Source: Acidobacteriota bacterium | GTDB lineage: Bacteria; Acidobacteriota; Polarisedimenticolia; J045 | Assembly (NCBI GenBank): GCA_024763475.1 | Contig: JANTFM010000001.1 | Coordinates: forward strand, 7,879-71,878 | Direction of reading: 5' to 3' | DNA length: 64,000 nt | Part shown: positions 2,379 to 34,130 of the stretch, piece after piece | Numbering within the stretch: position 1 is the first letter of the stretch | Layout of the letters: the number at the start of each line of letters is the position of its first letter | Notes under the pieces: generated by a model | What the model was told of the DNA's origin: nothing | The model's input: the letters and a program-made list of their open reading frames with translations, nothing else | Database searches by the model: none | Position numbers and translations under genes: made by a program

Positions 2379-2538
2379 ATTGGCTCTCCATCGTGGGAGG
2401 GATTCGAGTGCGGATGGTCGTGAGCTTCATGCGATGTTGTCGCGCTTTGTCGGGAAGATGCACCCGATCACTATCCGTACCGGCCAAATATTGTGGATTG
2501 CCATGCGTGCCGGGAGCGCGCGCGGTACCTTCCGCAGC

Positions 2539-4758
2539 ATGACGCCTTACAGAAAAACGGCCTGCCGCGCCGCTATTGTGCTCTTCCTGCTATCAACCTG
2601 GGTGGTTTCGACCCAGGCCCAGATCCGCGTGCTCTTCGATGCCTCACACCGCGAGAATGCCGCGAACGCGGACTGGGTGATCGATGCGGACTCCTGGGAT
2701 CTCAACCAGGAGCACTATCCTTGCGGCCAGTGGGCGAACGAGGCCCACGCACAGCGTCACCCGACGCCGAGCCAGTACCTGGTGGAGCCCGACGACGCCG
2801 AGACGATCTGGACGGGCGCCTTCTCGGCCTTCGGTATCGACCTGGTCAAGCTGGGATACGAGCTCGAGTCCCTGCCGGTCGAGGGCCGCGTGAGCTACGA
2901 AGATCCCACGAACGAACAGGATCTCTCGCTCTACGACATCCTCGTTCTCCCGGAGCCCAACCTACCGTTTAGCGGGGAGGAGATCCTGGCGATCCGGGAC
3001 TTCGTCCAGGACGGGGGCGGGCTCTTCTTTATCGCCGACCACCAGAGCTCCGACCGGGACTGCGACGGCCATGATTCGCCGCACATCGGAAACGATCTGA
3101 TGGGGGTCGTCATCAGCGGCGGCGTGATCACCGACGCCGGGCTTTTTGGAATCGTTTTCAACGTCGAGGAGATCGCCGGGCTCGGGGATGCTGACTACTG
3201 GTTCACGGATGGCGTGGACGACAACGTGTCGCCGGACCTCGACGATCCGATCATCCACGGGCCCCACGGGGATGGAAGCGGGGGACTCGGCCTCTTCGGC
3301 TCGACGGCAATGACCCTCGACAGCGGTGCTAACGCCACCGTACACGCGCACATTTGGAAGAGCGATGCACCCGAGCAGGGCGATCAGAGAGTGACCTTTG
3401 CCACGGCATGGTACGGACTCGGACGCATCGCCTGCATCGGGGACTCGTCTCCCGCCGACGACGGTACCGGCGACACCGGCGACAGCCTCTACGACGGTTG
3501 GGACAAGGCCTCCGGCGGCGTCGCCAACCGTGAGATCCACCTGAACGCGATCGCGTTTCTCGCCGACGCGCCCGCGGACGAGACGCCCCCCGCCAAGGTC
3601 CAGGACCTCCTCGCAACACCCCTGAGTGGAAGCAGCGTCCGGCTGGAGTGGACGGCGCCGGGTGACGACGGCAACAGCGGCCGCTCCCAGAGCTACGACA
3701 TCCGCCGCTCATCCTGGCCGATCCTCACGGACGCCGAGTTCGAGGTGGCCACAGCCCTCGACGGCGAGCCGTCTCCCTCGGTTGCCGGTACCCCAGAGAG
3801 CTGGACGGTCACCGGTCTCGACCCGGAGACGAGCTACTGGTTCGCCCTCGTGGCCCTCGATGATTTCTCGAACGTTTCGGAACTCTCGAACTCCAGCGCA
3901 GCCACCACCGGAGACGCGGGAAGCGGCGGAGCTCCCGGGGCGGATCACCTCGTGATCAGCGAGGTGCAGACGCGGGGCGTCTCCGACCACAACGACGAGT
4001 TCATCGAGCTGTTCAACCCCACGGACCATGCGGTGGATCTCTCCACCTGGAGCGTGCAATACAAGAGTTCGAGCGGCACGACCTACTTGAAGTTCGATCT
4101 TCCTGTGGCGGCATCGATCGCAGCCTACGGCTACTACTTGGTCGCGCGCCCCGAGTACACCGGCAGCGTGACGCCCGATGCCGAGCAGAGCGTCTTCTTG
4201 ATGGGGGCCTCCGGCGGCCACGTCTTCCTCGTGGATGAGCAGCAGGGCCTCGGCAGCTGTACCGACTCGTCGATCATCGACAAGGTCGCTTGGGGATCGG
4301 GCAACTGCCCGGAGGGCCGTACGGCCATCGCGCATGGAGCAGGGGAGTCCATCGAGCGCGCCCCGGGTGCCACGGATCCGGAGTGTGGCAACGGAGAGGA
4401 CAGCGATGATAACGAGGCGGACTTCGACGTGCGGCAGCCGGCCGACCCGCAGAACAGCAGCCAGAGCGAGGGACCCTGCGGGCCAGGCGGACTTGGCCCC
4501 GTGGGCGACTCGCTCGTTCTCGGGAGCTCCGGAGAGGACTCCCTCGACTGGGCCTCCTCTGTCGGCGCGGCGACCTACAAGCTTCGCCGCTCACCACAGG
4601 CCGACTTCATGCAAACCCACCCCGTCCCCGACGACACCTGGCTCCTCGAGCAGCTCCCGGGCACGCACACCGTAGATCTCGCCCAGCCAGATCCCGACGG
4701 CGCGTTCTACTACTTCGTCAACGCGGTGGGCACCGAAGGCGCCGAGTCTGCGAACTAG
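2539..4758 (+). CDS. Secreted multidomain protein: N-terminal domain of unknown function, fibronectin type III domain, lamin-tail domain (LTD)
   Basis: Start is placed at MTPYRKTACRAAIVLFLLSTWVVSTQAQ (signal peptide); the 5' extension back to 2359 is rejected. The FN3-like segment is SSVRLEWTAPGDDGNSGRSQSYDIRRS...TSYWFALVALDD. The LTD-like segment is LVISEVQTRGVSDHNDEFIELFNPTDHAVDLSTWSV...YYLVARPEY. Confidence 0.65.
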   Translation: MTPYRKTACRAAIVLFLLSTWVVSTQAQIRVLFDASHRENAANADWVIDADSWDLNQEHYPCGQWANEAHAQRHPTPSQYLVEPDDAETIWTGAFSAFGIDLVKLGYELESLPVEGRVSYEDPTNEQDLSLYDILVLPEPNLPFSGEEILAIRDFVQDGGGLFFIADHQSSDRDCDGHDSPHIGNDLMGVVISGGVITDAGLFGIVFNVEEIAGLGDADYWFTDGVDDNVSPDLDDPIIHGPHGDGSGGLGLFGSTAMTLDSGANATVHAHIWKSDAPEQGDQRVTFATAWYGLGRIACIGDSSPADDGTGDTGDSLYDGWDKASGGVANREIHLNAIAFLADAPADETPPAKVQDLLATPLSGSSVRLEWTAPGDDGNSGRSQSYDIRRSSWPILTDAEFEVATALDGEPSPSVAGTPESWTVTGLDPETSYWFALVALDDFSNVSELSNSSAATTGDAGSGGAPGADHLVISEVQTRGVSDHNDEFIELFNPTDHAVDLSTWSVQYKSSSGTTYLKFDLPVAASIAAYGYYLVARPEYTGSVTPDAEQSVFLMGASGGHVFLVDEQQGLGSCTDSSIIDKVAWGSGNCPEGRTAIAHGAGESIERAPGATDPECGNGEDSDDNEADFDVRQPADPQNSSQSEGPCGPGGLGPVGDSLVLGSSGEDSLDWASSVGAATYKLRRSPQADFMQTHPVPDDTWLLEQLPGTHTVDLAQPDPDGAFYYFVNAVGTEGAESAN

Positions 4759-8259: not shown

Positions 8260-11200
8260 ATGCAAGCCATGATGAAGATCGCAAACGCCGTTCTGCTGTC
8301 CGCAATCCTGCTCACAAGCGTGGGCTTCGCTACGCCCGCCCTGGCCCAGGTCGGAATCACGATCACGAGCCCCGCGGATTACGTCGAAGGAACGCTCGAG
8401 CTGTCCCCGGCGACCATGCCCTACATCGACCGCTCCTATCCCTATACAGCCGCGCCCGAGTTCTACCTTTCGTTGCAGACGGTCCGCACGGCCAATCGGG
8501 ACCGCTGGGACGAGAGCGAAGATTACCTGGTCTTCGAGGTTGACCGTCCGGTGACGGTTTACCTGCTCTACAGTTCCGAGGCGGCGAGTGCGCCAAACTG
8601 GGTGGCGAGCACCTTCACCCAGAACGGTGATCAGATTTCCCGGAACTACCACACCTGGAACGTCTGGCAGCGGGACTACCCCGCGGGCCAGGTCATCCTC
8701 GGCGGGAACATGGCCCCCGGCGCGGTGGCCATCGAGGGCGGCAGCATCGCAATGTTCAGTGTCGTGGTGGCCGAAGCCGACGAAGCGCCTGGGAATCGCC
8801 CGCCCGCCATCACCTCCGTCCCGGTGACCACGGCGACCGAGGGCGTGCTCTACACCTATGACGTGGAGGCCAGTGATCCCGACGCGGGTGATGTCCTCAC
8901 CTACTCCCTCGACACGGCACCCAGCGGCATGATCATCGATGGCGCGAGCGGCCTGATCGAATGGACACCGGACGCCAGCCAGGTTGGAGATCACGCGGTA
9001 ACCGTCCGCGTCGAGGATGGCGAGCCCCTCGCGGACACCCAGTCCTACAACGTGACGGTCTCTCCCGATACACCCGTGGATGACCTGGTGATCACGATCA
9101 CCGCCCCCGCCGACTACACGGAGGGCACGCTGGAGATTTCTCCTGCGACACGCCCCTATATCGACCGTTCCTACGTCTACATCGCGGCGCCCGGCCACTA
9201 CCTGGGACTACCGACCGTCCAGACCGCGAACCGCGACCGTGCGGAGACGACGACCGACTACCTGCACTTCGAGATCAACAAGGCCTGCATCGTCTACGTC
9301 CTCTACAGCTCGGAGGCTGCCAGCGTACCCGCCTGGCTCTCAGGCAGCTTCACGCAGAACGGCGACCAGGTCTCCCGCAACTACCACACCTGGAATGTCT
9401 GGCAGCGCCGTTACCCGGTGGGCGAGGTCGTCCTCGGTGGCAACCGGGCACCCGGCGCCGAAGCCATCGCCGGTGGTGCGCTCGGCATGTTCAGCGTGGT
9501 CGTCGAGGAGGCGCTTGGCCCGGCAGCAGAGTTCAGCGCCACACCCCGGAGCGGAGATTTGCCTCTCGAAGTGAGCTTCACCGACGAGTCCGATGGGAAC
9601 GTGACGACCTGGTCCTGGACCTTCGGCGATGGCGAGATGAGTACCGAACAGAACCCGGTGCACAGCTACGCCGAGGCTGGCAGCTATACCGTGACGCTCG
9701 AGGTCAGCGATGCCGACGGGAGCGACACCGTCACGAAGACGGATTACATCAGCGTCGTGGATCCCGCGCTCAACCAGCCGCCGGTCATCAGCTCGACTCC
9801 GGTCACGACCGCCGAGGTGGATAGCGCCTACAGCTATGACGTGGAGGCGGACGATCCAAACGCGGGGGATACGCTGACCTACTCTCTCGACATCTCACCG
9901 AGCGGCATGGTGATTGATTCGGTGAGTGGCCTGATCAGCTGGACTCCCACCGCGAGCCAGGTGGGAGACCACGCCGTCACGGTACGCGTCGAGGACCAGG
10001 AGGCCGCGGCCGACACGCAGAGTTACACGGTCACCGTCACCGACGATTCAACCCCCGTCGCTCTGGAGATCACGATCCTCAGCCCCGCCGACTACGTCGA
10101 AGGGACGCTCGATCTGCATCCCGCGAGTCGACCCTACGTGGATCGCTCCTACGTCTTCACCGCGGCTCCGGAACGCTATATCGGCCTGCCGACCGTGCGG
10201 ACGGCAAACGCGGATCGTGGCGAGACCAGCTTGGATTACCTGCGCTTCGAGGTGAACAAGACTGTCAACGTTCTCGTCTGCTACAGCACCCAGGCGGCGA
10301 GCGTGCCGGACTGGCTCAGCAGCCGCTTCACGCAGAACGGCGACCAGATCTCTCGCAACTACCACGACTGGAATGTCTGGGAGGCGCGCTTCGCGCCGGG
10401 TGAGATTGTTCTCGGTGGAAACAGCGCCCCTGGAGCGAGCGCGGTGGCGGGCGGTACGATCGCGATGTTCGCTGTCGTCGTGGAAGAGAGCAGCGGCCCG
10501 GCCGCGGCCTTCTCGGGAACGCCGCGAAGTGGAAACCTGCCCCTCGAGGTGAGCTTCACGGATAGTTCTACCGGCCCGGTGGACAGCTGGTCCTGGACCT
10601 TCGGCGACGGCGGGATGAGCACCGAGCAGAACCCGGTCCACAGCTACGCCGCCGCGGGCCTCTACACGGTGACGCTTGACGTCACAGGAGCCGAAGGATC
10701 TAACACCAAGACCGAGACCGACTACATCGAGGTGATCGATCCGAACGTGAACCAGGCGCCCGAGATCACCTCGGCTCCGATTCTCTCGGCCGTCGTCGAC
10801 ACGCTCTACAGCTACGACGTGGACGCCGAGGATCCGGACGCCGGTGATGTGCTGACCTACTCGCTGGATACGGCGCCGGTGGGCATGGTCATCGATCCGG
10901 CGAGCGGCTTGATCGAGTGGACTCCCGATCTCTCCCAGGTCGGTGACAACGATGTCGTGGTTCGCGTCGAGGACCAGGATCTCGCGGCGGATACCCAGAG
11001 CTTCACGATCAGCGTGAGCGATGGCTCTGAGCCGCTACCTCTCGAGATCACCATCCTCACCCCGGCAGACTACGCCGAGTCGGAGCTCAGGCTCGCGCCG
11101 GGCGCGTCGAAGACCTACATCGACCGCTCCTATGTCTTCACCGCAGCCCCCGAGCGTTTCGTCGGCATGGCGGTGATCCAGACGGCGAATCGCGACCGGC

Positions 11201-14200
11201 ATGAGAGCTCCGAGAACTACCTGAGCTTCGAGGTCAACCAGGCCGTCAACGTCTACGTGGCCTACAGCACCCAGGCCGCGAGCGCCCCGGACTGGCTGAG
11301 CGCGAGCTTCACCCAAATCGGCGAGCAGGTCTCGCGGACCTACCACAGCTGGAACCTCTGGCAGGCGCGCTACGGCGCGGGCACCATTGTCCTTGGTGGC
11401 AACGAGGCCCCCGGATACGAGGCCGTCTCCGGCGGATCCATCGGGATGTTCGTGGTGCTCGTCGAGCCGGCGGGCGGCCCGGCTGCGGACTTCTCGGCGA
11501 CGCCGCTGAGCGGATCGACCCCGCTCGAGGTGAGCTTCACCGATCTTTCCGATGGCAACATCTCGAGTTGGGCCTGGGACTTCGGGGATGGTGGAAGCAG
11601 TGACCTGCAAAACCCGACCCATACCTACTCCAGCGAGGGAAGCTACACCGTCACGCTGAGCGTGGACGGGGCTGACGGAGCGGATTCGCTCGTGCGGACG
11701 GACTATATCCACGCAACCGACCCCGCGAACAACGAAGCACCGACGATCACCTCGACACCGGTCACCTCGGCGATCGTCGGCGAGCTCTATACCTACGATG
11801 CCGAGGCGACGGATCCGAACGGTGACACCCTGACCTGGTCGCTGGATACGGCGCCGGTTGGGATGAACATCGATTCGGTGACGGGAGTCATCGACTGGCG
11901 TCCCGACGCAGGACAGGTCGGCGACCATCAGGTCGTCGTGCGGGTGGAGGATCCGCTGGCTGCCGCAGACACCCAGAGCTACACCGTCACGGTCAGTGAG
12001 GCGTCCTCCAGCCAGGAGCTGACGATCACGATCCTCACACCGGCGGACTACCTCGAGTCGACCCTCGAGATCGACCCCGCGACCAACCCCTACATGGATC
12101 GCGCCTATCCCTTCACCGCCGCGGGGGAGCACTACATCGGCCTGCCCGTGGTGCAGACGGCGAATCGCGATCGCTACGAGGATTCCGAAGACTACTGTAC
12201 CTTTGAGGTCAACAAGCCGGTGTGGGTCTATGTCCTCTACAGCACCGAGGCGGAGACGGCTCCCGACTGGCTGGAGCTCAACTTCACCAAGACCAACGAC
12301 CAGATCAGCCGCCGTTATCACACCTGGAATGTCTGGAAGCGCCAGTATCCTGCCGGGGTGGTAACCCTCGGGGGCAACGAAGCTCCGGGCCTGGTCATCC
12401 AGGAGGGCGGCTCGATCGGCATGTTCAGTGTGGTCCTCGAGGAGCTCGAGGTCCCGTTCGCTGACTTCAATGCGGTCCCCGTGGCGGGAGCCCCACCGCT
12501 TGCCGTGGCCTTCGAGGACAGGTCGACCGGTGGGATCAACAGCTGGCTTTGGACCTTCGGTGATGGAGAAACCAGCAGCGAGCAGAACCCCGTACACACC
12601 TACAACGAGCTCGGGCTCTACACCGTGACCCTCGACGTGAGTGGCTACGCCGGTTCGGACAGCCGCACGCGCACGGAATACATCAACGTCACCAACGATG
12701 AGATCAACGAGTCACCGCAGATCACGTCATCGCCGATCACCCAGGCCATCGCAGACGAGCTCTACAGCTACGACGTGGAGGCCACGGATCCGAACGCCGG
12801 GGATCTTCTCGAGTACTCTCTCGACAGCTCGCCTTCGGGCATGACGATCGACAGTGCGTCCGGCCTGATCCAATGGACGCCGAATTCCGGGCAGGTCGGC
12901 TCCCACGAAATCGTCGTGCGGGTCCAGGATGGTGGAGGGCTCTACGACACCCAGGCCTACTCGATTCTCGTCGATGTGGCGCGCGTGCCTTGGATGCACG
13001 CCTTCTGGGACCATCGCCAGATGCTCACGATCGACAATCCCTGCGGGGAGGTTCAGAGCGGGAAGCCTGTCCGTATCGATCTGGACTCGACTTTCGATTT
13101 CTCACGTGTCGCCGCGGACGGTCATGACCTGCGCGCGACCCTCGATGACGAAATCACCGAGATTCCCCTGTGGATCGAACACTGGAACGCCGACGCGCAG
13201 AGTGCGACGGTCTGGGTGCGCCTGCCGACGCTGCCTGCGGACGGCACCTCGATCTACTTCTACTCCGGATACGAGGAGGCCCAGGCGCGCGTCCGGGCTG
13301 CGAGCGTCTTCGATCTCTACGATGGCTTCGAGACCGATCCTCTCGGCCGCGTGGCGGCCGGCGAGCGAGACAATCCCGGCCAGTGGTCCCGGGTGGGCGA
13401 GGCCTCGCTCATTGAGTCCGGCGCTCCGGGTAGCTGGGATGCCTCCGGCGTGCGGGTCACCAGCGTCATCTGGGACGAGGATGAACTCGAGTATCGTGCC
13501 TACTACGAAGGTGTCTCGGACAGTGGCGATCAGCGCATCGGCGTCGCCTTCTCGCCGGACGGCGAGCGCTGGACCACCTGGCGCGATGGCTACCTGCTCG
13601 CTCCCGATGCGGGCAGCTGGGACGAGAGCGGCCTCTACGCACCGGTGGTCTGGCGGGAAGGTCCCGCGGACTACCGCATGCTCTACACCGGTGCTGGAAG
13701 CTCCGGGCGCCAGATCGGCCTGGCCACATCGCCGGACGGCCTGGTCTGGACGAAGAGCGTGGACAACCCGGTCTTCAACGATCCTGACTGGGCGCACGGC
13801 GACACGAACGGTGGCGGTGTCATCCGCGTCGACGGCGAGTACCTGATGTGGTACGCAACCGGCGGCTCTGGTGAGTCGGGAATCGCCGTGTCGACGGATC
13901 TCGTCAGCTGGAGCCCGTACCAGCCGGCGCCGATCTTCCCCAGCGGCGGCCTGCCGCAGGAGCGGAGCTGGTCCCGGGTGGCGTCGCAGACGTTCCGCCA
14001 TGGCAGCGACTACTACGTCTTCGTGAACGCCAGCGACGAGAGTGGCGCCCACGGCGAAGTCGATCTCTACCGCTCCTCGAGTCCCTACTTCCCGGATGCG
14101 GATCGCCACTTCGTGCGCACCGTGCACGTTCCGGGCCCGGAAGGCGAGTGGGACTCGTCTCACAGCGGCCCCTTGATGGTCGTCACTACGGGTATCGAGG

Positions 14201-15339
14201 CGCTCGCACTCCACGACGGACAACTTCGCGCGTACTACGCGGGCCGGAGTCCTGCCGGCATCTGGAGCTCAGGCCAGCTGAGCGAGGGCGATCTCGATGT
14301 GGCGCTTTCCGACGCTGCCGCCGCGACGACCTCCCTGGGCTGGGTGTTCAGCGCGAACGCCGCGACAACTCAGCTCGAAGCGCGGGGCGGGACGAAGTCC
14401 GTACGCCTCGCCGACGCGGATCCAGCCCTGAGCGAGGACGCTGTGGCCACCTTTGCCGGCCAAGGCGAGGGCCGGGTCGCTGCGTGGATGAGGCGTTCGG
14501 GTGCGAGCAACGGAGCGTTCGACCTGCGTCTCTTCGACGGCAACGACTTTGCCGCGTCTGCAGGTTTCGGAGCGGACGGCTACTTCCAGTTCTGGAACGG
14601 GTCGAACTTCTCCACCACCATTCCCTGGTCCAGTGATGAGTGGTACCTGGTGGAGATCTTCTTCGACACGCTGATGAGCACCTACGACGTCACGATCTTC
14701 GATGCCAACATGGTGGAGCTGGGGAGCTACACCGATATCGGCTTCGAACTGCCGGTCACCAGCATCAACAAGGCGTCGCTCTGGACCAGCGAGGGTCTCG
14801 TCGAGGATGTCTTCTTCGATGACTTCCGCGTGGAGGCCTTCTGCGGAGCCGACCCGGCGGGGACCCTGGGTATCGAGGAGGATCAGCCGCCGCTCGAGTT
14901 CGCGCTCACGCTGCTCGACTTCCCCGAGGGGTACTACACGAGCACGGTCTCACTCTCCCCGGACAACAAGTACACCTACTTCGATCGATCCTACATCTTC
15001 GAGGCTGCGCCGCCCGAGTATCTCGGTCTGCCATATATCGCGACCGCGGTGCGCGATGACCTTGCGGACGACGAGGAATGGATCACCTTCCACGTCAACC
15101 GTCCGGTGACGGTCTATGTCGGCTACTCCAACACCCAGGTGGCGAAGGCCCCGAACTGGATCAACCATCACTATCAGGAAAACGGCAAGGAGGTCAGCCG
15201 CACCTTCTGGACCTGGCAGGTCTGGGAGCGGGAGTTCCCCGCGGGTCGCATCGTCCTCGGCAGCAACGCTGCGGCAGGAACCGTGGAAGGGCACATCACC
15301 AACTACACGGTGATCATCGAGGAGCGCACGAAGCCATGA
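8260..15339 (+). CDS. Giant secreted multidomain surface/adhesin-like protein (2359 aa): 6 copies of an uncharacterised ~150-aa module, 4 PKD domains, 5 cadherin-like (dystroglycan-type) Ig domains, DUF2341, GH43/GH32-like five-bladed beta-propeller, LamG/ConA-like region
   Basis: Start is at MQAMMKIANAVLLSAILLTSVGFATPALAQ (signal peptide); the upstream extension from 8170 is rejected. The PKD domains have the form PLEVSFTD-S-G-V-SWSWTFGDGE-S-EQNPVHSY. The cadherin-like domains have the form Y-YDVEA-DPDAGD-LTYSLD-AP-GM-ID-SGLI-WTP. The DUF2341-like segment is IPLWIEHWNADAQSATVWVRLPTLPADGTSIYFYSG. The propeller-like blades have the form IGVAFSPDGERWT...YAPVVW...GLATSPDGLVWT...YLMWYATGGSG. A long open frame with no internal stops over 7 kb at ~68% GC supports a real gene. 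Confidence 0.8.
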   Translation: MQAMMKIANAVLLSAILLTSVGFATPALAQVGITITSPADYVEGTLELSPATMPYIDRSYPYTAAPEFYLSLQTVRTANRDRWDESEDYLVFEVDRPVTVYLLYSSEAASAPNWVASTFTQNGDQISRNYHTWNVWQRDYPAGQVILGGNMAPGAVAIEGGSIAMFSVVVAEADEAPGNRPPAITSVPVTTATEGVLYTYDVEASDPDAGDVLTYSLDTAPSGMIIDGASGLIEWTPDASQVGDHAVTVRVEDGEPLADTQSYNVTVSPDTPVDDLVITITAPADYTEGTLEISPATRPYIDRSYVYIAAPGHYLGLPTVQTANRDRAETTTDYLHFEINKACIVYVLYSSEAASVPAWLSGSFTQNGDQVSRNYHTWNVWQRRYPVGEVVLGGNRAPGAEAIAGGALGMFSVVVEEALGPAAEFSATPRSGDLPLEVSFTDESDGNVTTWSWTFGDGEMSTEQNPVHSYAEAGSYTVTLEVSDADGSDTVTKTDYISVVDPALNQPPVISSTPVTTAEVDSAYSYDVEADDPNAGDTLTYSLDISPSGMVIDSVSGLISWTPTASQVGDHAVTVRVEDQEAAADTQSYTVTVTDDSTPVALEITILSPADYVEGTLDLHPASRPYVDRSYVFTAAPERYIGLPTVRTANADRGETSLDYLRFEVNKTVNVLVCYSTQAASVPDWLSSRFTQNGDQISRNYHDWNVWEARFAPGEIVLGGNSAPGASAVAGGTIAMFAVVVEESSGPAAAFSGTPRSGNLPLEVSFTDSSTGPVDSWSWTFGDGGMSTEQNPVHSYAAAGLYTVTLDVTGAEGSNTKTETDYIEVIDPNVNQAPEITSAPILSAVVDTLYSYDVDAEDPDAGDVLTYSLDTAPVGMVIDPASGLIEWTPDLSQVGDNDVVVRVEDQDLAADTQSFTISVSDGSEPLPLEITILTPADYAESELRLAPGASKTYIDRSYVFTAAPERFVGMAVIQTANRDRHESSENYLSFEVNQAVNVYVAYSTQAASAPDWLSASFTQIGEQVSRTYHSWNLWQARYGAGTIVLGGNEAPGYEAVSGGSIGMFVVLVEPAGGPAADFSATPLSGSTPLEVSFTDLSDGNISSWAWDFGDGGSSDLQNPTHTYSSEGSYTVTLSVDGADGADSLVRTDYIHATDPANNEAPTITSTPVTSAIVGELYTYDAEATDPNGDTLTWSLDTAPVGMNIDSVTGVIDWRPDAGQVGDHQVVVRVEDPLAAADTQSYTVTVSEASSSQELTITILTPADYLESTLEIDPATNPYMDRAYPFTAAGEHYIGLPVVQTANRDRYEDSEDYCTFEVNKPVWVYVLYSTEAETAPDWLELNFTKTNDQISRRYHTWNVWKRQYPAGVVTLGGNEAPGLVIQEGGSIGMFSVVLEELEVPFADFNAVPVAGAPPLAVAFEDRSTGGINSWLWTFGDGETSSEQNPVHTYNELGLYTVTLDVSGYAGSDSRTRTEYINVTNDEINESPQITSSPITQAIADELYSYDVEATDPNAGDLLEYSLDSSPSGMTIDSASGLIQWTPNSGQVGSHEIVVRVQDGGGLYDTQAYSILVDVARVPWMHAFWDHRQMLTIDNPCGEVQSGKPVRIDLDSTFDFSRVAADGHDLRATLDDEITEIPLWIEHWNADAQSATVWVRLPTLPADGTSIYFYSGYEEAQARVRAASVFDLYDGFETDPLGRVAAGERDNPGQWSRVGEASLIESGAPGSWDASGVRVTSVIWDEDELEYRAYYEGVSDSGDQRIGVAFSPDGERWTTWRDGYLLAPDAGSWDESGLYAPVVWREGPADYRMLYTGAGSSGRQIGLATSPDGLVWTKSVDNPVFNDPDWAHGDTNGGGVIRVDGEYLMWYATGGSGESGIAVSTDLVSWSPYQPAPIFPSGGLPQERSWSRVASQTFRHGSDYYVFVNASDESGAHGEVDLYRSSSPYFPDADRHFVRTVHVPGPEGEWDSSHSGPLMVVTTGIEALALHDGQLRAYYAGRSPAGIWSSGQLSEGDLDVALSDAAAATTSLGWVFSANAATTQLEARGGTKSVRLADADPALSEDAVATFAGQGEGRVAAWMRRSGASNGAFDLRLFDGNDFAASAGFGADGYFQFWNGSNFSTTIPWSSDEWYLVEIFFDTLMSTYDVTIFDANMVELGSYTDIGFELPVTSINKASLWTSEGLVEDVFFDDFRVEAFCGADPAGTLGIEEDQPPLEFALTLLDFPEGYYTSTVSLSPDNKYTYFDRSYIFEAAPPEYLGLPYIATAVRDDLADDEEWITFHVNRPVTVYVGYSNTQVAKAPNWINHHYQENGKEVSRTFWTWQVWEREFPAGRIVLGSNAAAGTVEGHITNYTVIIEERTKP
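8356..13002 (+). repeat. In-frame tandem coding repeats inside the giant gene: unit 1 of 735 bp (8356-9090) then four units of exactly 978 bp (9091, 10069, 11047, 12025), each encoding [unknown module + PKD + cadherin-like]
   Basis: Each unit begins with a recurring (V/E)ITI(T/L)(S/A/T)PADY codon block. The starts were located by hand at 8356, 9091, 10069, 11047 and 12025, giving a period of 978 bp = 326 codons. Units are ~60-75% identical at protein level, i.e. diverged rather than recently duplicated. Confidence 0.8.
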
Positions 15340-15370: not shown

Positions 15371-16861
15371 GTGAGTTCCGGCATCAAGGGGGAGGTGAAG
15401 CTCCTCGCGAAGCACTCTGCGATCTACGGGGTCGCGCGGATCCTCGATCGCGCGATCGGTTTCTTCATGATCCCGGTCTACACGCGCTTCCTCGCGCCCG
15501 CCGACTACGGCGTGCTCGAGTTGATCTACATGACGGTCAGCCTGATCGGGATGGTCGTCGGCGTCGGCATCACCTCGGCCGTCACACGCTTCTACTTCGA
15601 CCACAAGGACGAAGAGAAGCGGAACGTCGTGATCTCGACGGCGATCATCGCCTACGGCGGCATGGTCGGTTTGATCGTGCTCCTGCTCCTGCCGTTCGGG
15701 GGCTTCGTCGGGCGCGTCGTCTTGCAGTCCGACGATGGATCCCGCTTGATCCTCGTCGCGCTGATCACGATGGCGGCGGACATCGTGTTCTCGATCGTCC
15801 TCGCCTACCTGCGCGCGCAGCATGCGTCACTCAAGGTTACCGGGATCACCCTGACCAAGACTGTTCTCACGCTGAGCCTGAACATCTACTTCCTCGTCTT
15901 CCTCGAGATGGGCGTGTTTGGGATCCTGCTGGCCTCTCTGGTGGCCAACCTGCTCTTCGCCACGGGGATGGTCATCGATACGCTGCGCCGCACAGGAATG
16001 CGCATCGATTTTCCGCTGATGGTGGAAATGCTGCGTTTCGGTGGGCCCCTGATCCCGTCCAACGTCGCGGCGTACCTGGTGCACAGTTCGGACCGCTACT
16101 TCATCGGGCACTACGTTGCGGTCTCCCAGGTCGGGATCTACTCGCTGGGTTACAAGTTCGGCTCGCTGATCAACCAGCTCGTCAATGCGCCGTTCACCCA
16201 AATCTGGAATCCGCGGCGCATCGAGAAGTTCGATCAGGGTGATGTCGAGAAACACTTCGCGAAGATTTTCACCTACTTCTGCACGCTGAACGTTTTTGCG
16301 GCGCTGATGCTCTCGCTGCTCTCGAGAGAGCTGATCCAGGTCATGGCGGCGCCAGAGTACTGGGATGCCTACAAGGTCGTGCCGATCATCGCGCTGTCCT
16401 ACGTCATCTTCTCGTTCCACTACCACTTCAACATCGGCATCCTCGCCAAGAAGAAGACGAAGTTTATCGCCTATACCAACGTCCTCAACGGCGGCTTGAA
16501 TCTCGTCTTGAATATCGCACTGATCCCGAGATTCGGTGTCTGGGGTGCCGCCTGGGCGACGCTCTTCTGTTTCACTTTCAAGATCACGCTGACCTACATC
16601 TTCTCGAACCGCCTCCACCCGATCCTGGTGGAGTGGCGTCGCGTGATCACGGTCTTCCTCGTCGGAGGCGTGGTCTACGGGGCTGGCGTCCAGATCGACT
16701 TGGGCTCGATTTGGCTCAACGCTCCCGCCCACGCGGCTGCAGGACTTGGTATGCCGTTGCTGCTGGTCGTGGCGCGTTTCTTCTCCCAGGAAGAGCTGGC
16801 GTTGGGCCGACGTCTCCTGTTCTCCAAGCTGGGCCGTGGTGCGGCGGGGCAGGGTGCGTAA
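15371..16861 (+). CDS. wzx: Polysaccharide/oligosaccharide flippase, Wzx-like (MOP/MATE superfamily, Polysacc_synt family)
   Basis: 496 aa with ~12-14 predicted TM helices. It has the Polysacc_synt hallmarks: N-terminal LLAKHSAIYGVARILDRAIGFFMIPVYTRFLAPADYGV and C-terminal GVWGAAWATL. The GTG start at 15371 lies 32 nt after the giant gene's stop. Confidence 0.7.
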   Translation: MSSGIKGEVKLLAKHSAIYGVARILDRAIGFFMIPVYTRFLAPADYGVLELIYMTVSLIGMVVGVGITSAVTRFYFDHKDEEKRNVVISTAIIAYGGMVGLIVLLLLPFGGFVGRVVLQSDDGSRLILVALITMAADIVFSIVLAYLRAQHASLKVTGITLTKTVLTLSLNIYFLVFLEMGVFGILLASLVANLLFATGMVIDTLRRTGMRIDFPLMVEMLRFGGPLIPSNVAAYLVHSSDRYFIGHYVAVSQVGIYSLGYKFGSLINQLVNAPFTQIWNPRRIEKFDQGDVEKHFAKIFTYFCTLNVFAALMLSLLSRELIQVMAAPEYWDAYKVVPIIALSYVIFSFHYHFNIGILAKKKTKFIAYTNVLNGGLNLVLNIALIPRFGVWGAAWATLFCFTFKITLTYIFSNRLHPILVEWRRVITVFLVGGVVYGAGVQIDLGSIWLNAPAHAAAGLGMPLLLVVARFFSQEELALGRRLLFSKLGRGAAGQGA

Positions 16862-16906
16862 CGCGGGGAGGCGATGGGCCGCTCGAAAGCGGCGAAGGAG
16901 CGAGCC

Positions 16907-17686
16907 ATGACACCCGATGGCGACAAGATGCTGGGAATTTTTGGCGGAATGGGAGCGGAGGCGGGTGCCATGACCTACCAGCGCCTCGTCCGCAGCACGG
17001 CAGCCGCGACCGATCAGGAGCACATCCCCACGGTGGTCTACGGGGCGACGACGGTGCCGGACCGCACCCAGGCCATCCTGGGGAGCGGCAAGCCCTGTGT
17101 TGACGCTCTCGTCGACGGTGTCCGCTTTCTCGAGCGCTGTGGCGCAGACGTTGTCATCGTCGGTTGCATCACCGCCCACCACTACATCGAAGAGATGCGC
17201 GGCGCGGTGTCCTGCGAGATCCTCTCCGCCGTCGAGGAGACGGTGCAGGTCATCCGTGAGCGAGCACCGGACGCGCAACGCATCGGTCTTCTGGCGACCA
17301 CGGGCACGATCGCCAGCCGGATCTTCCAGTCCGCCCTGGAGCGCGAGGGACTCACGCCGGAGATTCTCGACCCGCGCGATCAGGCGCGCTGGGTCATGGA
17401 AGCGATCTACGGCGAGCACGGCATCAAGAGCGGGGAGGAGGGGCCCGGCCGTCAGCTGATGCTCAAGGCGGCAGCGGAGCTGATGGATCGTGATGTCGAC
17501 GGTCTGATCGCCGGCTGCACCGAGATCCCTCTCGCGCTATTCCCCGAGGACTGTAGCGTCCCGCTCTTCGATCCTCTGGACGCCCTGATCGCCGCGGCGG
17601 TCAGGGCCTGTGGCCGCAAGCTGCGGGATTCGGCCGGGGGAGGCCCCGCGTTAAACTGCTGTCAACACTCCTCGGTAAAAAATTAA
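16907..17686 (+). CDS. Aspartate/glutamate racemase family protein (Asp_Glu_race)
   Basis: The ATG at 16907 is preceded by AAGGAG (spacer 6). Conserved motifs are the GIFGGMG N-terminal loop and the two catalytic-Cys motifs VIVGCITAHHY and LIAGCTEIPL. Confidence 0.75.
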   Translation: MTPDGDKMLGIFGGMGAEAGAMTYQRLVRSTAAATDQEHIPTVVYGATTVPDRTQAILGSGKPCVDALVDGVRFLERCGADVVIVGCITAHHYIEEMRGAVSCEILSAVEETVQVIRERAPDAQRIGLLATTGTIASRIFQSALEREGLTPEILDPRDQARWVMEAIYGEHGIKSGEEGPGRQLMLKAAAELMDRDVDGLIAGCTEIPLALFPEDCSVPLFDPLDALIAAAVRACGRKLRDSAGGGPALNCCQHSSVKN

Positions 17687-17825: not shown

Positions 17826-18500
17826 ATGAGGAGGGGTCATCGTCGTCAGGCTGTGCTGGATGCTGCCCGGGTTGTGTTCGCCGAGCGCGGCTATCACGCG
17901 GCCTCCGTTGCGAACATCATTGAGGAAGCACGGATCGCCAGGGGTACCTTCTACCTCTACTTTGAAAGCAAGAGGGCCGTCTTCAGCGAACTGGTGGACC
18001 AGTTCCTGGCGGCTCTGCGGAACTCCGTCAAGGGCCTGAAGATCGGTCGCGAGGAGAATCCGCCCCATGAGCAGCTCCGCGCCAACTTCTCCCGCGTGCT
18101 TGCCCTGCTGGGGGAGGAACCGGAGATGGCGGTCATCCTCCTCGACCATGCCCATGGGTTAGATGAGGAAAGCGACCGGAAGCTGCTCGAGTTCTACGAC
18201 CAGATGGCTCACGGTCTCGAGCGGGCCCTCGAGGCGGGACGCGCTCTCGGCCTGGTCAGCATCGAAGACACCGAAATCGCCGCTCGCGCCGTCCTTGGTG
18301 GGCTCAAGGAGGTTGTTCGTTTCCTGACGATCCATGGGGGAGAGCCCCGTGATCACGAGCGCCTGGTTGACGATCTACTCCGGGTGACTTTGCGCGGCGT
18401 GCTCGATGGCCCGATGAAGCAACTGCTCGAGCCGGTTCTCTCGCCCCTGCCATCGTTGGACGTGGAAGACGAGGAGACGGGCGCCGGAGACGAACGATGA
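17826..18500 (+). CDS. TetR/AcrR family transcriptional regulator
   Basis: The N-terminal TetR_N HTH is RRQAVLDAARVVFAERGYHAASVANIIEEARIARGTFYLYFESKRAVF. Start is chosen at MRRGHRRQ (17826). Confidence 0.75.
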   Translation: MRRGHRRQAVLDAARVVFAERGYHAASVANIIEEARIARGTFYLYFESKRAVFSELVDQFLAALRNSVKGLKIGREENPPHEQLRANFSRVLALLGEEPEMAVILLDHAHGLDEESDRKLLEFYDQMAHGLERALEAGRALGLVSIEDTEIAARAVLGGLKEVVRFLTIHGGEPRDHERLVDDLLRVTLRGVLDGPMKQLLEPVLSPLPSLDVEDEETGAGDER

Positions 18501-20293
18501 GCGTTCGGCCCGAGCCTCCGCCCCGAGCTCACGGGGGAATGCCGCCTCCTCCGGATAGCGTGATCGATGCCCATCTCGAGCGAGAGCGGCAGCGTCTGCT
18601 GCGGGAGGCGGGTCTCGCCTCGTCGCCTCCCCAGCACTTGCGTAAGCTCGCCGAACACCCCTTTCTCGAGGAGGAACGCGATTCGGTCACGATCCTGACC
18701 GGGGGGTTCTCGCGGCATCATGACCTCTTTCTGCGCGCCGGTTTCCAGGGCCTCGGCTACACCAGGACCGAGCTCGTTCCAACGCCGACCAAGGCCGACT
18801 TTCAAGCAGGCAAGGAGTACGGCAACAACGGCCAGTGCAGCCCGACCTACTTCACCGTGGGTGCCCTGGTGAACTACCTGAAGCGGCTCAGGGACGAGGA
18901 AGGCCTGTCCACCGAGACGATCGTGAGGGACTACGTCTTCGTCACGATGGGGGCCTGCGGCCCCTGCCGCTTCGGCATGTACGAGTCGGAGTATCGCCTC
19001 GCCCTGCGCAATGCGGGCTTCGAGGGATTCCGCATCGTGCTGTTCCAGATCAAGGGCGGTGTGCACCAGGTCAACGGCCAGAAGCCGGGGATCGCGTTCG
19101 ACCTCGACTTCTTCCTCACCTTCGGCAACCTGGTCATGCTTGCCGACCTCGTCAACGAGGTGGCGCGCCAGATTCGCCCCTACGAAGTGGTCCCGGGCCG
19201 GACGGATCGCGTCTTCGAAAAGGTGCAGGAGAAGATCCAGGCCGGGCTCCGTGAGCTCAGCCTTCATGTCGAGCGCCCGAGTGCCCCCGCGCGACTCCTC
19301 GCCCCGCTTCTCCCGCTCAAGGACTCCGCTGAGGTCGATAAGTTCCTGGCGCAGCTGCGCTCACAACACTTCGTTTCGATCCTCGAAGAGTGTGCACGCC
19401 TGATCGACGAAGAGATCGAGGTCGACTACACGAGGCCGCGTCCCAAGGTAAAAGTCACTGGTGAATTCTGGGCCACGCTGACAGAGGGTGACGGGAACTA
19501 CAACATGTACCGCTACCTCGAGAGCCAGGGTGCGGAGGTGGCAGCCGAGCCGATCACGACCTGGATCACCTTCCTGGTTTCCCAAGCCCGGGTCTACGCA
19601 AAGGACGCCAAGGGTCTCGCCAGTGCCGAGGTCGAAGGGGGTTTCGCTCGTCTTCGCGCACGGGCGGGGGAAGAGCTCCAGCACCACAAGCGCATGCTCG
19701 TTCTTGGAGTCACAGAGAGGATCCTCAAGCGTGAGTACGATCGCCTGCGCGCCGCCCTTGGCGGCACCGCGAACCAAAGCGCGGATCACGACGAACTCCG
19801 GCGTCTCGCCCACTCCTTCTACAACTCGCGCTCGCAGGGCGGGGAGGGGCACATGGAGGTCGCCAAGACCATCTACTACTCGAGTCGCGGCCTGGCGCAC
19901 ATGGTGCTCAGTCTCAAACCCTTCGGTTGCCTGCCATCCACGCAGTCGGACGGCGCACAGGTCGCCGTGCTGGCCCAGTATCCACAGGCGACCTTCCTGC
20001 CGGTCGAAACCTCCGGCGAAGGGGATATCAACGCCTACAGCCGGGTCCAGATGGTGCTCGCGGAGGCCAAGACGAAGAGCCGGGACGAGTTCCAGGAGTC
20101 CATCGCGAAGACCGGTTTCTCCCTCGAGGAGATCCGGGACTATGCAGCGGGGAGGCGGGAGCTCAGACGCCCCCTGCAGCAGGTCCCGAAGATCGAGGGT
20201 GTCGCGGGCCGGGCGGCACGTTTCGTCCAGTACGTTGCCGGCTTGATGCGCGAGGACGGCCTGCGCCCGGATCCCGCGCCATGCCCGAGATAG
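18497..20293 (+). CDS. CoA-enzyme-activase-associated protein (DUF2229 / 2-hydroxyacyl-CoA dehydratase-related; conserved Cys motif ACGPCRFG)
   Basis: 598 aa. The ATGA start overlaps the TetR stop. The segment MGACGPCRFGMYESEYRLALRNAGFEGFRIVLF and the overall composition resemble the DUF2229 component that partners with BadF/BadG/BcrA/BcrD-type activases. Assignment is by motif recollection, not by search. Confidence 0.5.
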   Translation: MSVRPEPPPRAHGGMPPPPDSVIDAHLERERQRLLREAGLASSPPQHLRKLAEHPFLEEERDSVTILTGGFSRHHDLFLRAGFQGLGYTRTELVPTPTKADFQAGKEYGNNGQCSPTYFTVGALVNYLKRLRDEEGLSTETIVRDYVFVTMGACGPCRFGMYESEYRLALRNAGFEGFRIVLFQIKGGVHQVNGQKPGIAFDLDFFLTFGNLVMLADLVNEVARQIRPYEVVPGRTDRVFEKVQEKIQAGLRELSLHVERPSAPARLLAPLLPLKDSAEVDKFLAQLRSQHFVSILEECARLIDEEIEVDYTRPRPKVKVTGEFWATLTEGDGNYNMYRYLESQGAEVAAEPITTWITFLVSQARVYAKDAKGLASAEVEGGFARLRARAGEELQHHKRMLVLGVTERILKREYDRLRAALGGTANQSADHDELRRLAHSFYNSRSQGGEGHMEVAKTIYYSSRGLAHMVLSLKPFGCLPSTQSDGAQVAVLAQYPQATFLPVETSGEGDINAYSRVQMVLAEAKTKSRDEFQESIAKTGFSLEEIRDYAAGRRELRRPLQQVPKIEGVAGRAARFVQYVAGLMREDGLRPDPAPCPR

Positions 20294-23200
20294 CCTCGGG
20301 ACACAGGCGCCCGTACAGCGAGGTCCTGGTCATCGGGCTCGATGTCGGGAGCACGACGGTCAAGGCCGTCGTCGTCGAACCCGGCCAACAGGTCGTGATC
20401 TATCGGAACTACCGTCGGCACGAGGCGCGTCAGACCGAGCTATGTCTCGAGTTTCTCGAGCAGATAGAAAAGGAACTCTCGCCCCACGCTGAAGCAGGAT
20501 TCCGGATCGCCGTCACGGGCTCGGGTGGCAACGAGATCGCGGAGCGTCTCGGCGCCCCCTTCGTCCAGGAGGTCAGCGCCATCAGCCTGGCCGTGACGAG
20601 GCTTTATCCCGAGGTTCGGAGTGTCGTCGAACTCGGCGGCCAGGATGCGAAGATCATCATCTTCAAGGAGGACCCGGCGACCGGTCGTAAGAAGACCTAT
20701 CCCTCGATGAATGACAAGTGTGCCGGCGGCACGGGATCGGTGATCGACAGGATCAGTGCCCGGCTGAACGTCCCTCCCGGGGACGTCGCCACCATGCGCT
20801 ACGAGGGCGTGCGTCTGCATCCCGTGGCGGGCAAGTGTGGTGTCTTCGCCGAGACCGACATCAATAGCCTGGTCAAGCAGGGCATCCCCACGGACCAGCT
20901 CGTTGCCTCTCTCTTCGAGAGCATCGTTCAGCAGAATCTTTCGGTTCTGACCCGGGGGCATACGCTGATGCCCCAGGTGCTCCTGCTCGGCGGCCCCAAC
21001 CACTACATTCGCGGGCTCGTCGAGTGTTGGAGGCACAACATCCCCCTGCTCTGGAAGGAGCGAAAGGTCACGCTGCCCGCGGGCCAGAGCATCCGTGAGC
21101 TGATCGTCGTCCCGGAAAACGCCCACTACTTTGCTGCATTGGGCGCCGCAGAGACGGCCGAGGAGGAAGCGAACGATGATCCATCGTTCGGGATCTACCA
21201 CGGGTGTAAGGTGCTGCGCAGCAGCTTGGCGCGGGACGAGGGGGCCGCTCGGCTCAGAACGGGACTGAGCCCTCTCTGCCAGAGTGAGGAAGAGCAGGCC
21301 CGCTTCGAAGAGCAGTATCGCCCGCCGCCATGGGAGCCGGTGCGCTTCGAGGCGGGCACCCGAGTCGAGGCCTACCTCGGCCTCGACGGCGGATCAACGA
21401 GCACCAAGGCCGTACTCCTCGACCCCCGGATGCGGGTTCTCGCCAAGGCCTACCAGCTGAGCCGTGGGAATCCGATTCAGGACGCCAAGGAGATGTTCGC
21501 GTCGCTCGAGTCGCAGATCCTCGAGCAGGACTGCACGCTCGAGATCCTGGGGCTGGGAACGACCGGGTACGCCAAGGACATCCTCAAGGATGTCTTCCGA
21601 GCCGACGTGGCTCTCGTGGAGACCGTGGCCCACACCCAGGCGGGACTGCACTACTTCTCAGGATCGGATGTGATCATCGACGTGGGTGGTCAGGACATTA
21701 AGCTGATCTTCCTCAAGAACGACGCGGTCCACGATTTCAAGTTGAATACCCAGTGCTCGGCGGGAAATGGCTACTTCCTGCAGGGAACCGCCGAGGCCCT
21801 CGGCTTCCGCGTCGAGGACTACGCGGACATCGCCTTCTCAGCCCGTGCGATGCCCGAATTCGGCTACGGGTGTGCGGTGTTCATGCAGACCGACATCGTG
21901 GATTTCCAGCGCCAGGGATGGAGTGCCGAGGAGATCATGGCGGGGCTCGCCGCCGTGCTGCCGAAGAACATCTGGCTCTATGTCGCCAAGATTTCCAACC
22001 TGCCCAAGCTCGGCCGGAAGTTCATCCTGCAGGGTGGGACCCAGCACAATCTCGCTGCGGTCAAGGCTCAGGTCGACTTCATTTCCTCGCGTTTCGTCGG
22101 TTCCGGCGTAGAGCCCGAGGTGATCGTCCATCCGCACTGCGGGGTGTCGGGGGCGATTGGTTGTGCGCTCGAGGTGCACCGTCTTCACGAGGAGCAGGGG
22201 CAGGAGACTCGTTTCATCGGCCTCGCGGCGGCCCAGGACATCGGCTATCACGCGATACGGGGAGAAGAAACCCGCTGCGGCTTCTGCAAGAACAAGTGTC
22301 TGAGGACCTTCATCGATCTCTCGGGCGGGGAACGCATCATCATCGCGACCTGTGAGAAGGGCTCGGTGGAAGAGCTTGCTGACATGAAGCGGATCAAGAA
22401 GGGACTCGATGCCGCGAAGCGGGCCAACCCCAATCTGGCGGAGATCTCGGCCCGTGAGGTGTTTCGTCCCGTAGAGGTTCTCCAGAGTCGTTCTGGCCCC
22501 GTGGAACGACGTCGTGCAGCCCTGCCCTTCGTGAAAGGGAGAGCAGCTCGGCGGGCGGAACGTGTCGAGAGACGTGAGCGTGTGCGGATCGGCATGCCTC
22601 GCGTCATGAATCTTTACTCGATGGCGCCGGTGTTCATGGGCTACTTCCAGAGTCTGGGCGTAGCGGCGGAGAACCTCGTCTGGTCCGACTACAGCTCCGA
22701 GGAGCTCTACCGCGGCGGGGCGAAACGTGGAAGCATCGACCCCTGTTTCCCGAGCAAACTGGGCATTCCCCATCTTCACAACCTGATGGAGAAGAAGCAC
22801 ACGGCGGACAGGCCGCTTTCCCACATCTTCTTCCCGATGATCGACACGCTCCCCACGGTGCTCGTCGGGACGATTGCCAACCGTGCCTGTCCCACCGTCT
22901 GCAACACGCCCGAAGCCGTGGGTGCGGCCTTCATCAAGGAGGGCGATCTCTTCGCGGAACAGGGCATCGTCTTCAAGAAGACCTTCTGCAACATCGACAA
23001 CCCGCTCCTCCTCGCGCGACAGCTCTTTCTCGACTGGAAGGACGAGATCGGCGTCACCGAAGAAGAGTCCCGTTTCGCGGTTCGCCAGGGTCTTGCCGCC
23101 CTCGAGGCCTTCGAGGCGGCGCGGCGCGCTGAGTCCCGCAAGATCATCGATCGTCTTGAGCGGGAGGGCGGCATTGGGCTCGTGCTGCTCGCGAGGCCCT

Positions 23201-30462: not shown

Positions 30463-31122
30463 ATGGAACCCGAAAAGCGATTTTTCTTTCCCCGTTGGTT
30501 TAACCTCCTGCTGCCTGCTCTGGGCGTCGTGCTTGTGGGTGGACCGCTCTACCTCATCGTCGTGGTCTGGCTCGGATTCTCTCCGATGGCGGTTAGCGTC
30601 GGGTATGCTCCCGAGCAGCCCGTTCCCTATTCCCACGCCCTCCACGCGGGAGAACTGGGGATCGACTGCCTCTACTGTCACAACACGGTCGAGGAAAGCG
30701 GAAGAGCTGCGATACCTCCGTCTGCGACCTGCATGAACTGTCACGAGCGGATCAAGGCGAAGAGTGAGGCGCTTGCGCCGATCAGGGAGAGCATGGAGAC
30801 TGGCGAGCCAGTCAAGTGGGTGAGGGTGCACGACTTGCCGGACTTCGTCTACTTCAACCACAGCGCTCATGTCTCGCGAGGTGTGGGCTGCGTCGAGTGT
30901 CATGGCCGGGTGGATCGCATGGAGGTCGTCACCCAAGTCAAGCCCCTGAGCATGGGATGGTGCCTTGCTTGCCATCGCGATCCCGACGCCCGGCTTCGGC
31001 CCTTGGATCGGATCACCGATCTCGGCTGGGAGCCGGATGGAGATCGACTCGAGATCGGTCGTAAGGTACGAGAAGAAAACAACATCCAACCCTCCACGGA
31101 CTGTTCCACATGTCATCGATGA
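30463..31122 (+). CDS. actA: Alternative complex III subunit ActA, membrane-anchored pentaheme cytochrome c
   Basis: There are five CxxCH motifs (CLYCH, CMNCH, CVECH, CLACH, CSTCH). An N-terminal TM helix is present. It is first in an act operon. Confidence 0.8.
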   Translation: MEPEKRFFFPRWFNLLLPALGVVLVGGPLYLIVVVWLGFSPMAVSVGYAPEQPVPYSHALHAGELGIDCLYCHNTVEESGRAAIPPSATCMNCHERIKAKSEALAPIRESMETGEPVKWVRVHDLPDFVYFNHSAHVSRGVGCVECHGRVDRMEVVTQVKPLSMGWCLACHRDPDARLRPLDRITDLGWEPDGDRLEIGRKVREENNIQPSTDCSTCHR

Positions 31123-34127: not shown

Positions 34128-34130
34128 TCC

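Follow-up and report, generated by a model that had tools for sequence, protein, structure and literature searches.

Six copies of a candidate glycan-binding module and a non-canonical GH130-like propeller in a giant secreted protein of an uncultured Acidobacteriota bacterium

What is the function of a secreted protein of 2,359 residues in which one uncharacterised module is repeated six times and a five-bladed beta-propeller precedes the last copy? The question is raised by a gene at 8260-15339 (+ strand) in a stretch of 64,000 nucleotides from an uncultured Acidobacteriota bacterium (assembly GCA_024763475.1, contig JANTFM010000001.1); this whole stretch is referred to below as the window, and positions are counted from its first letter. 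A preliminary description of the DNA, made from the sequence without database searches, had seen in the protein a probable surface enzyme that binds or remodels glycans. The reading that is put forward here, for which the scales stand about level, is that this giant protein is a multivalent glycan tether exported by Sec, and that the propeller which it carries as payload is non-canonical and likely non-catalytic.

Architecture of the protein and its repeated module

The reading frame is open on the + strand from 8170, and the last base of its stop codon is 15339. From the ATG at 8260 the frame encodes a typical, canonical Sec-type signal peptide, MQAMMKIANAVLLSAILLTSVGFATPALA|QV; this peptide was read straight from the sequence and covers aa 1-29 (8260-8346), with predicted cleavage at ALA|QV. 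The public gene call (P0021, 2356 aa) begins at 8269 and is identical over the rest of the protein. No convincing promoter was seen upstream of the gene.

The six copies of the module span aa 27-175, 272-420, 598-746, 924-1073, 1250-1398 and 2211-2359, with 42-66% identity to copy 1, and 31 columns are invariant in their alignment. When the full window was scanned in six frames with a hidden Markov model (HMM) of the module, these six copies, all in the giant protein, were returned and none beyond it. Copies 1-5 are each part of a 326-aa super-repeat, in which the module is followed by a PKD domain and a He_PIG/cadherin-like immunoglobulin (Ig) domain and which spans the N-terminal 1,574 residues; copy 6 forms the extreme C-terminus. 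Since the super-repeat units are only 56-69% identical to one another at the protein level, the duplications that gave rise to them are old. Tandem Repeats Finder detected none of this super-repeat, whose 978-nt period is beyond the limit of the program. Unit 1 lacks the PKD domain, so that the totals are four PKD and five He_PIG domains. The PKD_4/PKD (PF18911/PF00801) and He_PIG (PF05345) families of Pfam were matched above the gathering threshold (247.9, 171.6 and 226.6 bits), and Big_9 and Cadherin_5 are also among the Pfam matches.

On the DNA, all on the + strand, copy 1 without the signal peptide residues (aa 30-175) occupies 8347-8784 and is followed by the first He_PIG/cadherin-like Ig domain at 8800-9072. 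Copies 2 to 5 are found by alignment and HMM scan at 9073-9519, 10051-10497, 11029-11478 and 12007-12453, and the PKD and He_PIG domains of units 2 to 5, placed by Pfam and repeat comparison, at 9520-10050, 10498-11028, 11479-12006 and 12454-12981. Copy 6 is at 14890-15336 and is the most divergent, with 42% identity to copy 1. The five N-terminal copies and the single C-terminal copy thus stand as the preliminary description had counted them, and Pfam bears out the PKD, cadherin-like and DUF2341 domains that it had named. The interleaving that it described holds for the N-terminal part, where the layout is now refined to the 326-aa unit and its first, PKD-less member.

The AlphaFold 2 (AF2) model of the module, based on a 26-sequence alignment, is a confidently predicted beta-sandwich (pLDDT 92, pTM 0.88). 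When this model was compared with solved structures by Foldseek, matches were obtained to 6hpd (E 1.6e-8, TM 0.75) and to 6hze/6hzf (E ~1e-4, TM 0.65), while the remaining matches all had E > 0.06 and TM < 0.33. The module's sequence profile also matches 6hpd, at residues 869-988 (E 4.5e-5); the second structure, 6HZE/6HZF, was not among the profile's matches and is only 14-16% identical to the module. Both solved relatives are found as accessory domains on enzymes whose substrates are polysaccharides that contain uronic acids. In 6HPD, a beta-glucuronidase of glycoside hydrolase family 2 (GH2) from Formosa agariphila, the related C-terminal domain (~869-988) is present as a single copy on a catalytic GH2 protein, in contrast to the repeated module of the giant protein, and the family-invariant Arg32, Lys/Arg56 and Trp88 are missing from it. 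In 6HZE/6HZF, structures of the GH138 rhamnogalacturonan-II alpha-galacturonidase BPa0997, the relative is a beta-sandwich domain. A literature search turned up no description of the C-terminal domain of 6HPD. Classical carbohydrate-binding modules (CBMs) such as CBM27, CBM35, CBM77 and CBM6 resemble the module in being beta-sandwiches of ~120-170 aa that are often in tandem, often C-terminal and carried on secreted carbohydrate-active proteins. The positions of the module that are invariant in its family are mostly polar or aromatic and are located mainly in predicted loops, a pattern which, going by the model, is that commonly seen at the ligand or Ca2+ sites of CBMs.

To gauge the size of the family, a profile was made from the six copies and 20 outside homologs, which are short proteins with the same motifs retrieved by a word-indexed search with the six copies. 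A HMMER scan of 1.84 billion cluster representatives with this profile gave 5,041 proteins at E<=1e-3, of which 3,508 also pass E<=1e-10, a recurrence that, judged from these matches, is far beyond chance. Dehalococcoidia, Desulfohalobiaceae and Pontibacter are among the organisms, where these are named. The top 149 proteins carry 2-6 copies each in tandem, and in 78 of them (52%) a copy forms the end of the protein. The family signature was derived from 282 module instances and comprises, in the numbering of module 1, Y29 (93%), D31 (100%), R32 (97%), Y34 and P40; T51, A52, N53 (92%), D55 (91%), K/R56 (96%) and F66; V74, Y75, V76, A77, Y78, D79 (91%) and R81 (85%); and P86, W88 (99%), L89, G117, L121, G122, G123, N124 (94%), Y140 (98%) and V142. 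In motif form these are Y-x-D-R-x-Y, T-A-N-x-D-[KR], V-Y-V-A-Y-D-x-R, P-x-W-L, L-G-G-N and Y-x-V. The six copies of the giant protein keep most of this signature; copy 6 is without N53 and K/R56, and G-S-N there replaces G-G-N.

For all six copies Pfam gives no relevant match at E<=10, and none of its curated CBM models was matched. Two weak chance matches to unrelated families, TNT (E 0.16) and GldD_lipo (E 0.056), were seen among the copies. When the whole protein was compared with NCBIfam there was no match over a module at E<=1, and a Pfam scan of 50 module-family relatives revealed no common family that could be the module. The names of these proteins come from their other domains: Ig-like, fibronectin type III, InlB B-repeat-containing, chitodextrinase. 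The statement of the preliminary description that the module fits no known family is therefore borne out by Pfam, NCBIfam and the 50 relatives; the module represents a widespread domain family without a Pfam or NCBIfam model, and it may bear a name in CAZy/dbCAN, InterPro or AlphaFold resources. PL28 ulvan lyases have an "ulvan binding domain"; an identification of the module with it was considered and dropped, as that domain has been likened to ricin or lectin-like folds and no evidence of kinship was found.

The company that the module keeps is largely carbohydrate-related. Partner domains in the 50 scanned relatives include fn3, Big_7, PKD, cadherin-like, GDSL/SGNH lipase, beta-helix, 3-keto-disaccharide-hydrolase (LamG-like) and Glucodextran_B domains, and a GH32N-like domain is also found among the partners in module-family proteins. 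Four unrelated representative proteins (P0026, P0028, P0044 and P0067) share the order [module-PKD]n, LamG-like (3keto-disac_hyd) domain, SGNH/GDSL esterase, C-terminal module, which is the scaffold of the giant protein with another payload. The module also occurs by itself: P0017 is a stand-alone secreted protein of 191 aa with a signal peptide and a single module, followed on three contigs by genes for AXE1-type and BD-FAE-type esterases. At these loci (gene at 8001-8576 in L006 and L007 and at 4496-5071 in L008) the neighbours are an AXE1/Peptidase_S9-type esterase, an 851-aa protein of unknown function and a BD-FAE esterase. The closest relative of the module outside the ortholog described below is P0001 (49% identical), at 3332-6088 of L009, where one module/PKD/He_PIG gene is apparently split into three calls, probably by frameshifts in a long-read assembly.

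The sole ortholog found, L002, is a 2.2-kb contig from a metagenome-assembled genome (MAG) of an uncultured Acidobacteriota bacterium, and shares 69% identity with the giant protein over 733 aa. Conservation between the two is highest in module 5 (79% identity, dN 0.15), with the propeller at 65% and dN 0.28; in this comparison dS is saturated (>1), and it is the ranking by dN alone that is informative. The common scaffold with other payloads, the esterase neighbours and the conservation of module 5 argue for a targeting or tethering role for the module. The solved relatives and the esterase, beta-helix and LamG-like partners also make carbohydrate binding plausible, in keeping with the preliminary description, which had found the module compatible with a CBM.

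The C-terminal cassette and its propeller

Between the super-repeats and copy 6 lies a cassette (aa 1575-2215, 641 aa) that is 37-44% identical to free-standing proteins of 750-870 aa over 96-100% of the query, with E values down to 1e-165. These proteins are annotated as "DUF2341 domain-containing protein" in Krumholzibacteria, Saprospiraceae and other MAGs, and many of them end in a Por_Secre_tail of the type IX secretion system (T9SS) or in FlgD_ig. Their three domains follow the same order as in the cassette, but they are without modules, whereas the giant protein has module 6 for a tail and ~1,570 aa of module repeats added at the N-terminus. The AF2 model of the cassette (pLDDT 88) consists of a beta-sandwich (DUF2341), the five-bladed propeller and a second all-beta domain. 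The DUF2341 beta-sandwich begins the cassette at 13009-13359 (+) and is matched by PF10102 at aa 1620-1695 with 57.1 bits against a cutoff of 23.4; a literature search on DUF2341 yielded nothing functional. The second all-beta domain (14332-14883, +), which is confidently predicted and had been described as LamG-like, showed no significant Pfam or PDB sequence match over aa 2025-2208, the best being Sialidase-like_CBM at E 1e-3, below the cutoff. When a cassette HMM was run against the top 149 module-family proteins none contained the full cassette, and for this reason the fusion of modules and cassette appears, from these sequences, to be specific to the lineage of the giant protein. At another locus (L003, 7650-12334) two tandem cassette paralogs of 784 and 777 aa lie downstream of genes for a GDSL lipase and a tetratricopeptide repeat (TPR) protein.

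The propeller (13372-14319, +) has a fold of the GH130/GH43/GH32 superfamily. Pfam GH130 (PF04041) is matched at aa 1747-1885 with 20.9 bits (E 1.9e-4), below the cutoff of 26. In GH130 an Asp in the motif E/Y-D-P-R is invariant; it is Asp142 in BT3780, where the D142N mutant is inactive (PMC4599007). In the alignment with 7fip, made blade 1 to blade 1 from the N-termini of both propellers, the E-D-P-R of GH130 corresponds to V-R-V-P-M in the cassette family and to L-Y-A-P-V in the giant protein, so that the column of the catalytic Asp holds Val in the family and Ala1794 (13639-13641) in the giant protein. In the alternative blade register, given by the alignment with 4onz, this column is Asn. 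By the replacement of this Asp the giant protein differs from the GH130 beta-mannoside phosphorylases and hydrolases, for example Teth514_1788 (9FJ8), UhgbMP (4UDG) and BT3780 (5A7V). It differs also in its surroundings, as none of the matched GH130 chains (298-388 residues) is flanked by DUF2341 and a further beta-sandwich. In GH43 and GH32 (clans GH-F and GH-J) the catalytic Asp of blade 1 is that of a D-P motif (WMNDPNG). These families were represented in the alignment by distant relatives with Pfam matches to GH32N, GH43 or GH130, which have G/S-D-P at this column; the cassette family has T-F-A there, and the giant protein has R-V-T. Of the "catalytic-looking" propeller of the preliminary description, then, the fold is upheld and the catalytic residues are not, the GH130 Asp and, going by these distant relatives, the Asp of the blade-1 D-P both being absent.

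In the free-standing cassette family a set of polar motifs, WDDH, VRVP, TENW, DDRY and WD..D.DTP, is strongly conserved just before the inner strand of each blade, and on the strength of these motifs the family may be one of uncharacterised enzymes or lectins. The giant protein has altered 49 of the 150 family-conserved propeller positions, among them H1750E, H1758Q, R1793Y, N1851G, W1852G, R1871G, D1902R and D1968H. Seen as motifs, DH has become AS, R has become Y, ENW has become NGG, DDRY has become ERSW and D.DTP has become HSGPL; these replacements differ from L002 too. Between the giant protein and L002 the altered positions are 50% identical, the same as unconstrained positions, while the retained positions are 93% identical. 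Because the altered positions are no better conserved than unconstrained ones, the ancestral pocket is, by this comparison, under relaxed constraint in the lineage of the giant protein. The propeller is maintained, although probably not for its ancestral chemistry.

Neighbouring genes

A Wzx-like flippase of the MOP family is encoded at 15371-16861 on the same strand, 31 nt downstream of the giant-protein gene. It is matched by PF01943 (Polysacc_synt, 78.5 bits, E 7e-22) and PF13440 (78.6 bits); the best NCBIfam model is the holdfast flippase HfsF, and both this and the O-glycosylation Wzx models score far below their cutoffs. The 31-nt gap yielded no terminator; such terminator-like stems as occur close to the junction are all within the flippase gene. 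Co-transcription of the two genes is possible. No glycosyltransferase, Wzy or Wzz homolog was identified among the window open reading frames (ORFs) that were scanned. At three cassette homologs on long contigs there is no Wzx neighbour, and their neighbourhoods are unrelated. The adjacency to which the preliminary description had drawn attention is thus real, but with no Wzx at the three homologs and no glycosyltransferase among the scanned genes the functional tie is weak.

The flippase gene is followed by genes for an amino-acid racemase, a TetR regulator, an unknown protein and a CoA-enzyme activase. The racemase (16874-17686, +), which lies directly after the flippase, scores 199.6 bits against the NCBIfam cutoff of 190 for the cysteate racemase CuyB and, being above that cutoff, is not taken for a MurI-type glutamate racemase. 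At 19927-23757 (+) is a 1,276-aa BcrAD_BadFG ATPase with DUF2229, of the CoA-enzyme activase type, into which the end of an unknown ORF of 598 aa (18497-20293) extends. Further downstream, at 31110-35597 (+), a 4Fe-4S dicluster protein of 1,005 aa and an NrfD-like membrane subunit are encoded in this order, and the two look like a polysulfide-reductase/alternative-complex-III module. Upstream of the giant-protein gene are genes for a helix-turn-helix (HTH)-TPR protein and hypothetical proteins; another probable surface protein is encoded there at 2359-4758 (+), with 799 aa, a lamin-tail domain, fn3 and a weak match to ABC_transp_aux. The cumulative GC skew of the window is flat over the first 24 kb and then rises steadily from 0.01 to 0.81 until the window end (24000-64000).

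Role of the protein and competing explanations

The anatomy of the protein, its homologies and folds, the substitutions in its propeller and the size of the module family suggest the following picture. The giant protein would leave the cell by Sec and act outside or at the surface as a multivalent tether. Its six beta-sandwich modules of ~145 aa would be non-catalytic binders of a polymeric glycan, which could be a polysaccharide from the environment or the bacterium's own exopolysaccharide, with the PKD and He_PIG Ig-like domains serving as spacers between them and the repetition giving avidity. The modules would flank a payload, the DUF2341-propeller-beta-sandwich cassette, that elsewhere is a free-standing secreted protein. 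With the canonical Asp and much of the conserved pocket lost, a propeller of lectin-like or structural role, or an enzyme of altered chemistry, would be likelier than a standard glycoside hydrolase or phosphorylase. The outcome therefore leans towards a binding protein and not an enzyme, which is what the preliminary description had expected of a propeller without glycoside hydrolase catalytic residues.

Several observations weigh against this picture, in whole or in part. The propeller is under purifying selection overall (omega ~0.12, with dS saturated) and keeps the invariant W-D motifs at the blade starts (D1727, D1788), and a non-canonical active site is possible in view of these sequence features. 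The residue equivalences on which the loss of the Asp is based come from profile alignments at 15-25% identity in which the blade register is ambiguous and the coverage of blades 4-5 is not reliable. In the modules, position 79 is Ser and position 81 is Glu or Gln in all six copies, where the family has Asp79 (91%) and Arg81 (85%); because both residues are replaced in every copy, the ligand of these modules may differ from that of the family or binding may be weakened. To our knowledge, no function has been assigned to the module-like domain in either the 6HPD or the GH138 crystal structures. Finally, an extracellular or surface location is suggested by the signal peptide, and of the anchors looked for (PEP-CTERM, LPXTG and T9SS tail) none was seen.

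It is rather unlikely that the protein is instead an active glycan-remodelling enzyme, as the preliminary description had proposed. The propeller would then represent an undescribed glycoside hydrolase or phosphorylase family with a catalytic arrangement other than that of GH130, and the modules would target it to its substrate, possibly a polymer exported by the flippase. The conserved polar motifs of the free-standing cassette family do resemble an active site, and yet they are replaced in the giant protein, and differently in L002. GH130 enzymes can act without the canonical acid, and BT3780 provides the precedent (PMC4599007); here, however, the invariant Asp is itself absent by either register and the Pfam GH130 score is under the gathering threshold. 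The overall omega would also suit an enzyme, as would the Wzx-like gene 31 nt downstream on the same strand, but there is no Wzx at the three cassette homologs and no glycosyltransferase among the scanned window genes.

Alternatively, the protein could be a scaffold or adhesin of the biofilm matrix that binds the bacterium's own exopolysaccharide or other cells, its beta-sandwiches and propeller being structural or lectin-like and its task being adhesion or cross-linking and not the targeting of degradation. Its size and repetitive Ig-like architecture, with five He_PIG and four PKD domains, are typical of bacterial adhesins, its relatives are annotated merely as Ig-like, fn3 or InlB-repeat proteins, and the multivalent modules, the degenerate propeller pocket and the adjoining flippase-like gene, with HfsF as its best if far sub-threshold NCBIfam match, would all fit. 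This too is considered unlikely: none of the three tails mentioned above was detected, and module relatives are attached to degradative enzymes (GH2, GH138, SGNH esterases), which points to substrate targeting. The scaffold explanation also overlaps with the tether, from which it differs only in the origin of the ligand. A very improbable further case is that the module does not bind glycan at all and acts instead in protein-protein interaction or oligomerisation, in secretion or sorting, or as a small catalytic domain. The copy at the extreme C-terminus in 52% of the top matches is reminiscent of sorting domains, and the 6HPD homolog is without R32, K56 and W88; but internal tandem copies, up to six per protein, would be unexpected for a sorting signal, stand-alone secreted single-module proteins exist, multiple tandem repeats speak against catalysis and the partner domains are carbohydrate-related.

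In its architecture the giant protein is of a familiar kind, in which a large secreted chain of many domains joins binding modules and Ig-like spacers to a payload that resembles an enzyme. The novelty is in the repeated unit, a member of a large family that is spread across phyla; this family has no Pfam or NCBIfam model and has been solved only as appendages in GH2 and GH138 enzymes. A tentative proposal, held with something short of even confidence, is that the module founds a large unclassified CBM family, whose cluster representatives number 5,000 or more and come from a broad range of taxa that includes Acidobacteriota, Chloroflexota, Desulfobacterota and Bacteroidota. Since beta-glucuronidase, alpha-galacturonidase and SGNH, AXE1 and BD-FAE esterases recur as its partners, the D-R/N-D-K/D-x-R/W/N cluster may recognise acidic or acetylated polysaccharides. 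For the propeller, a GH130-like fold without the GH130 catalytic Asp means that annotation as a glycoside hydrolase is unwarranted. With the module family and its ligand defined, many large surface proteins from soil and marine metagenomes would be better annotated, and a further CBM family of relevance to acidic or acetylated polysaccharides could be gained.

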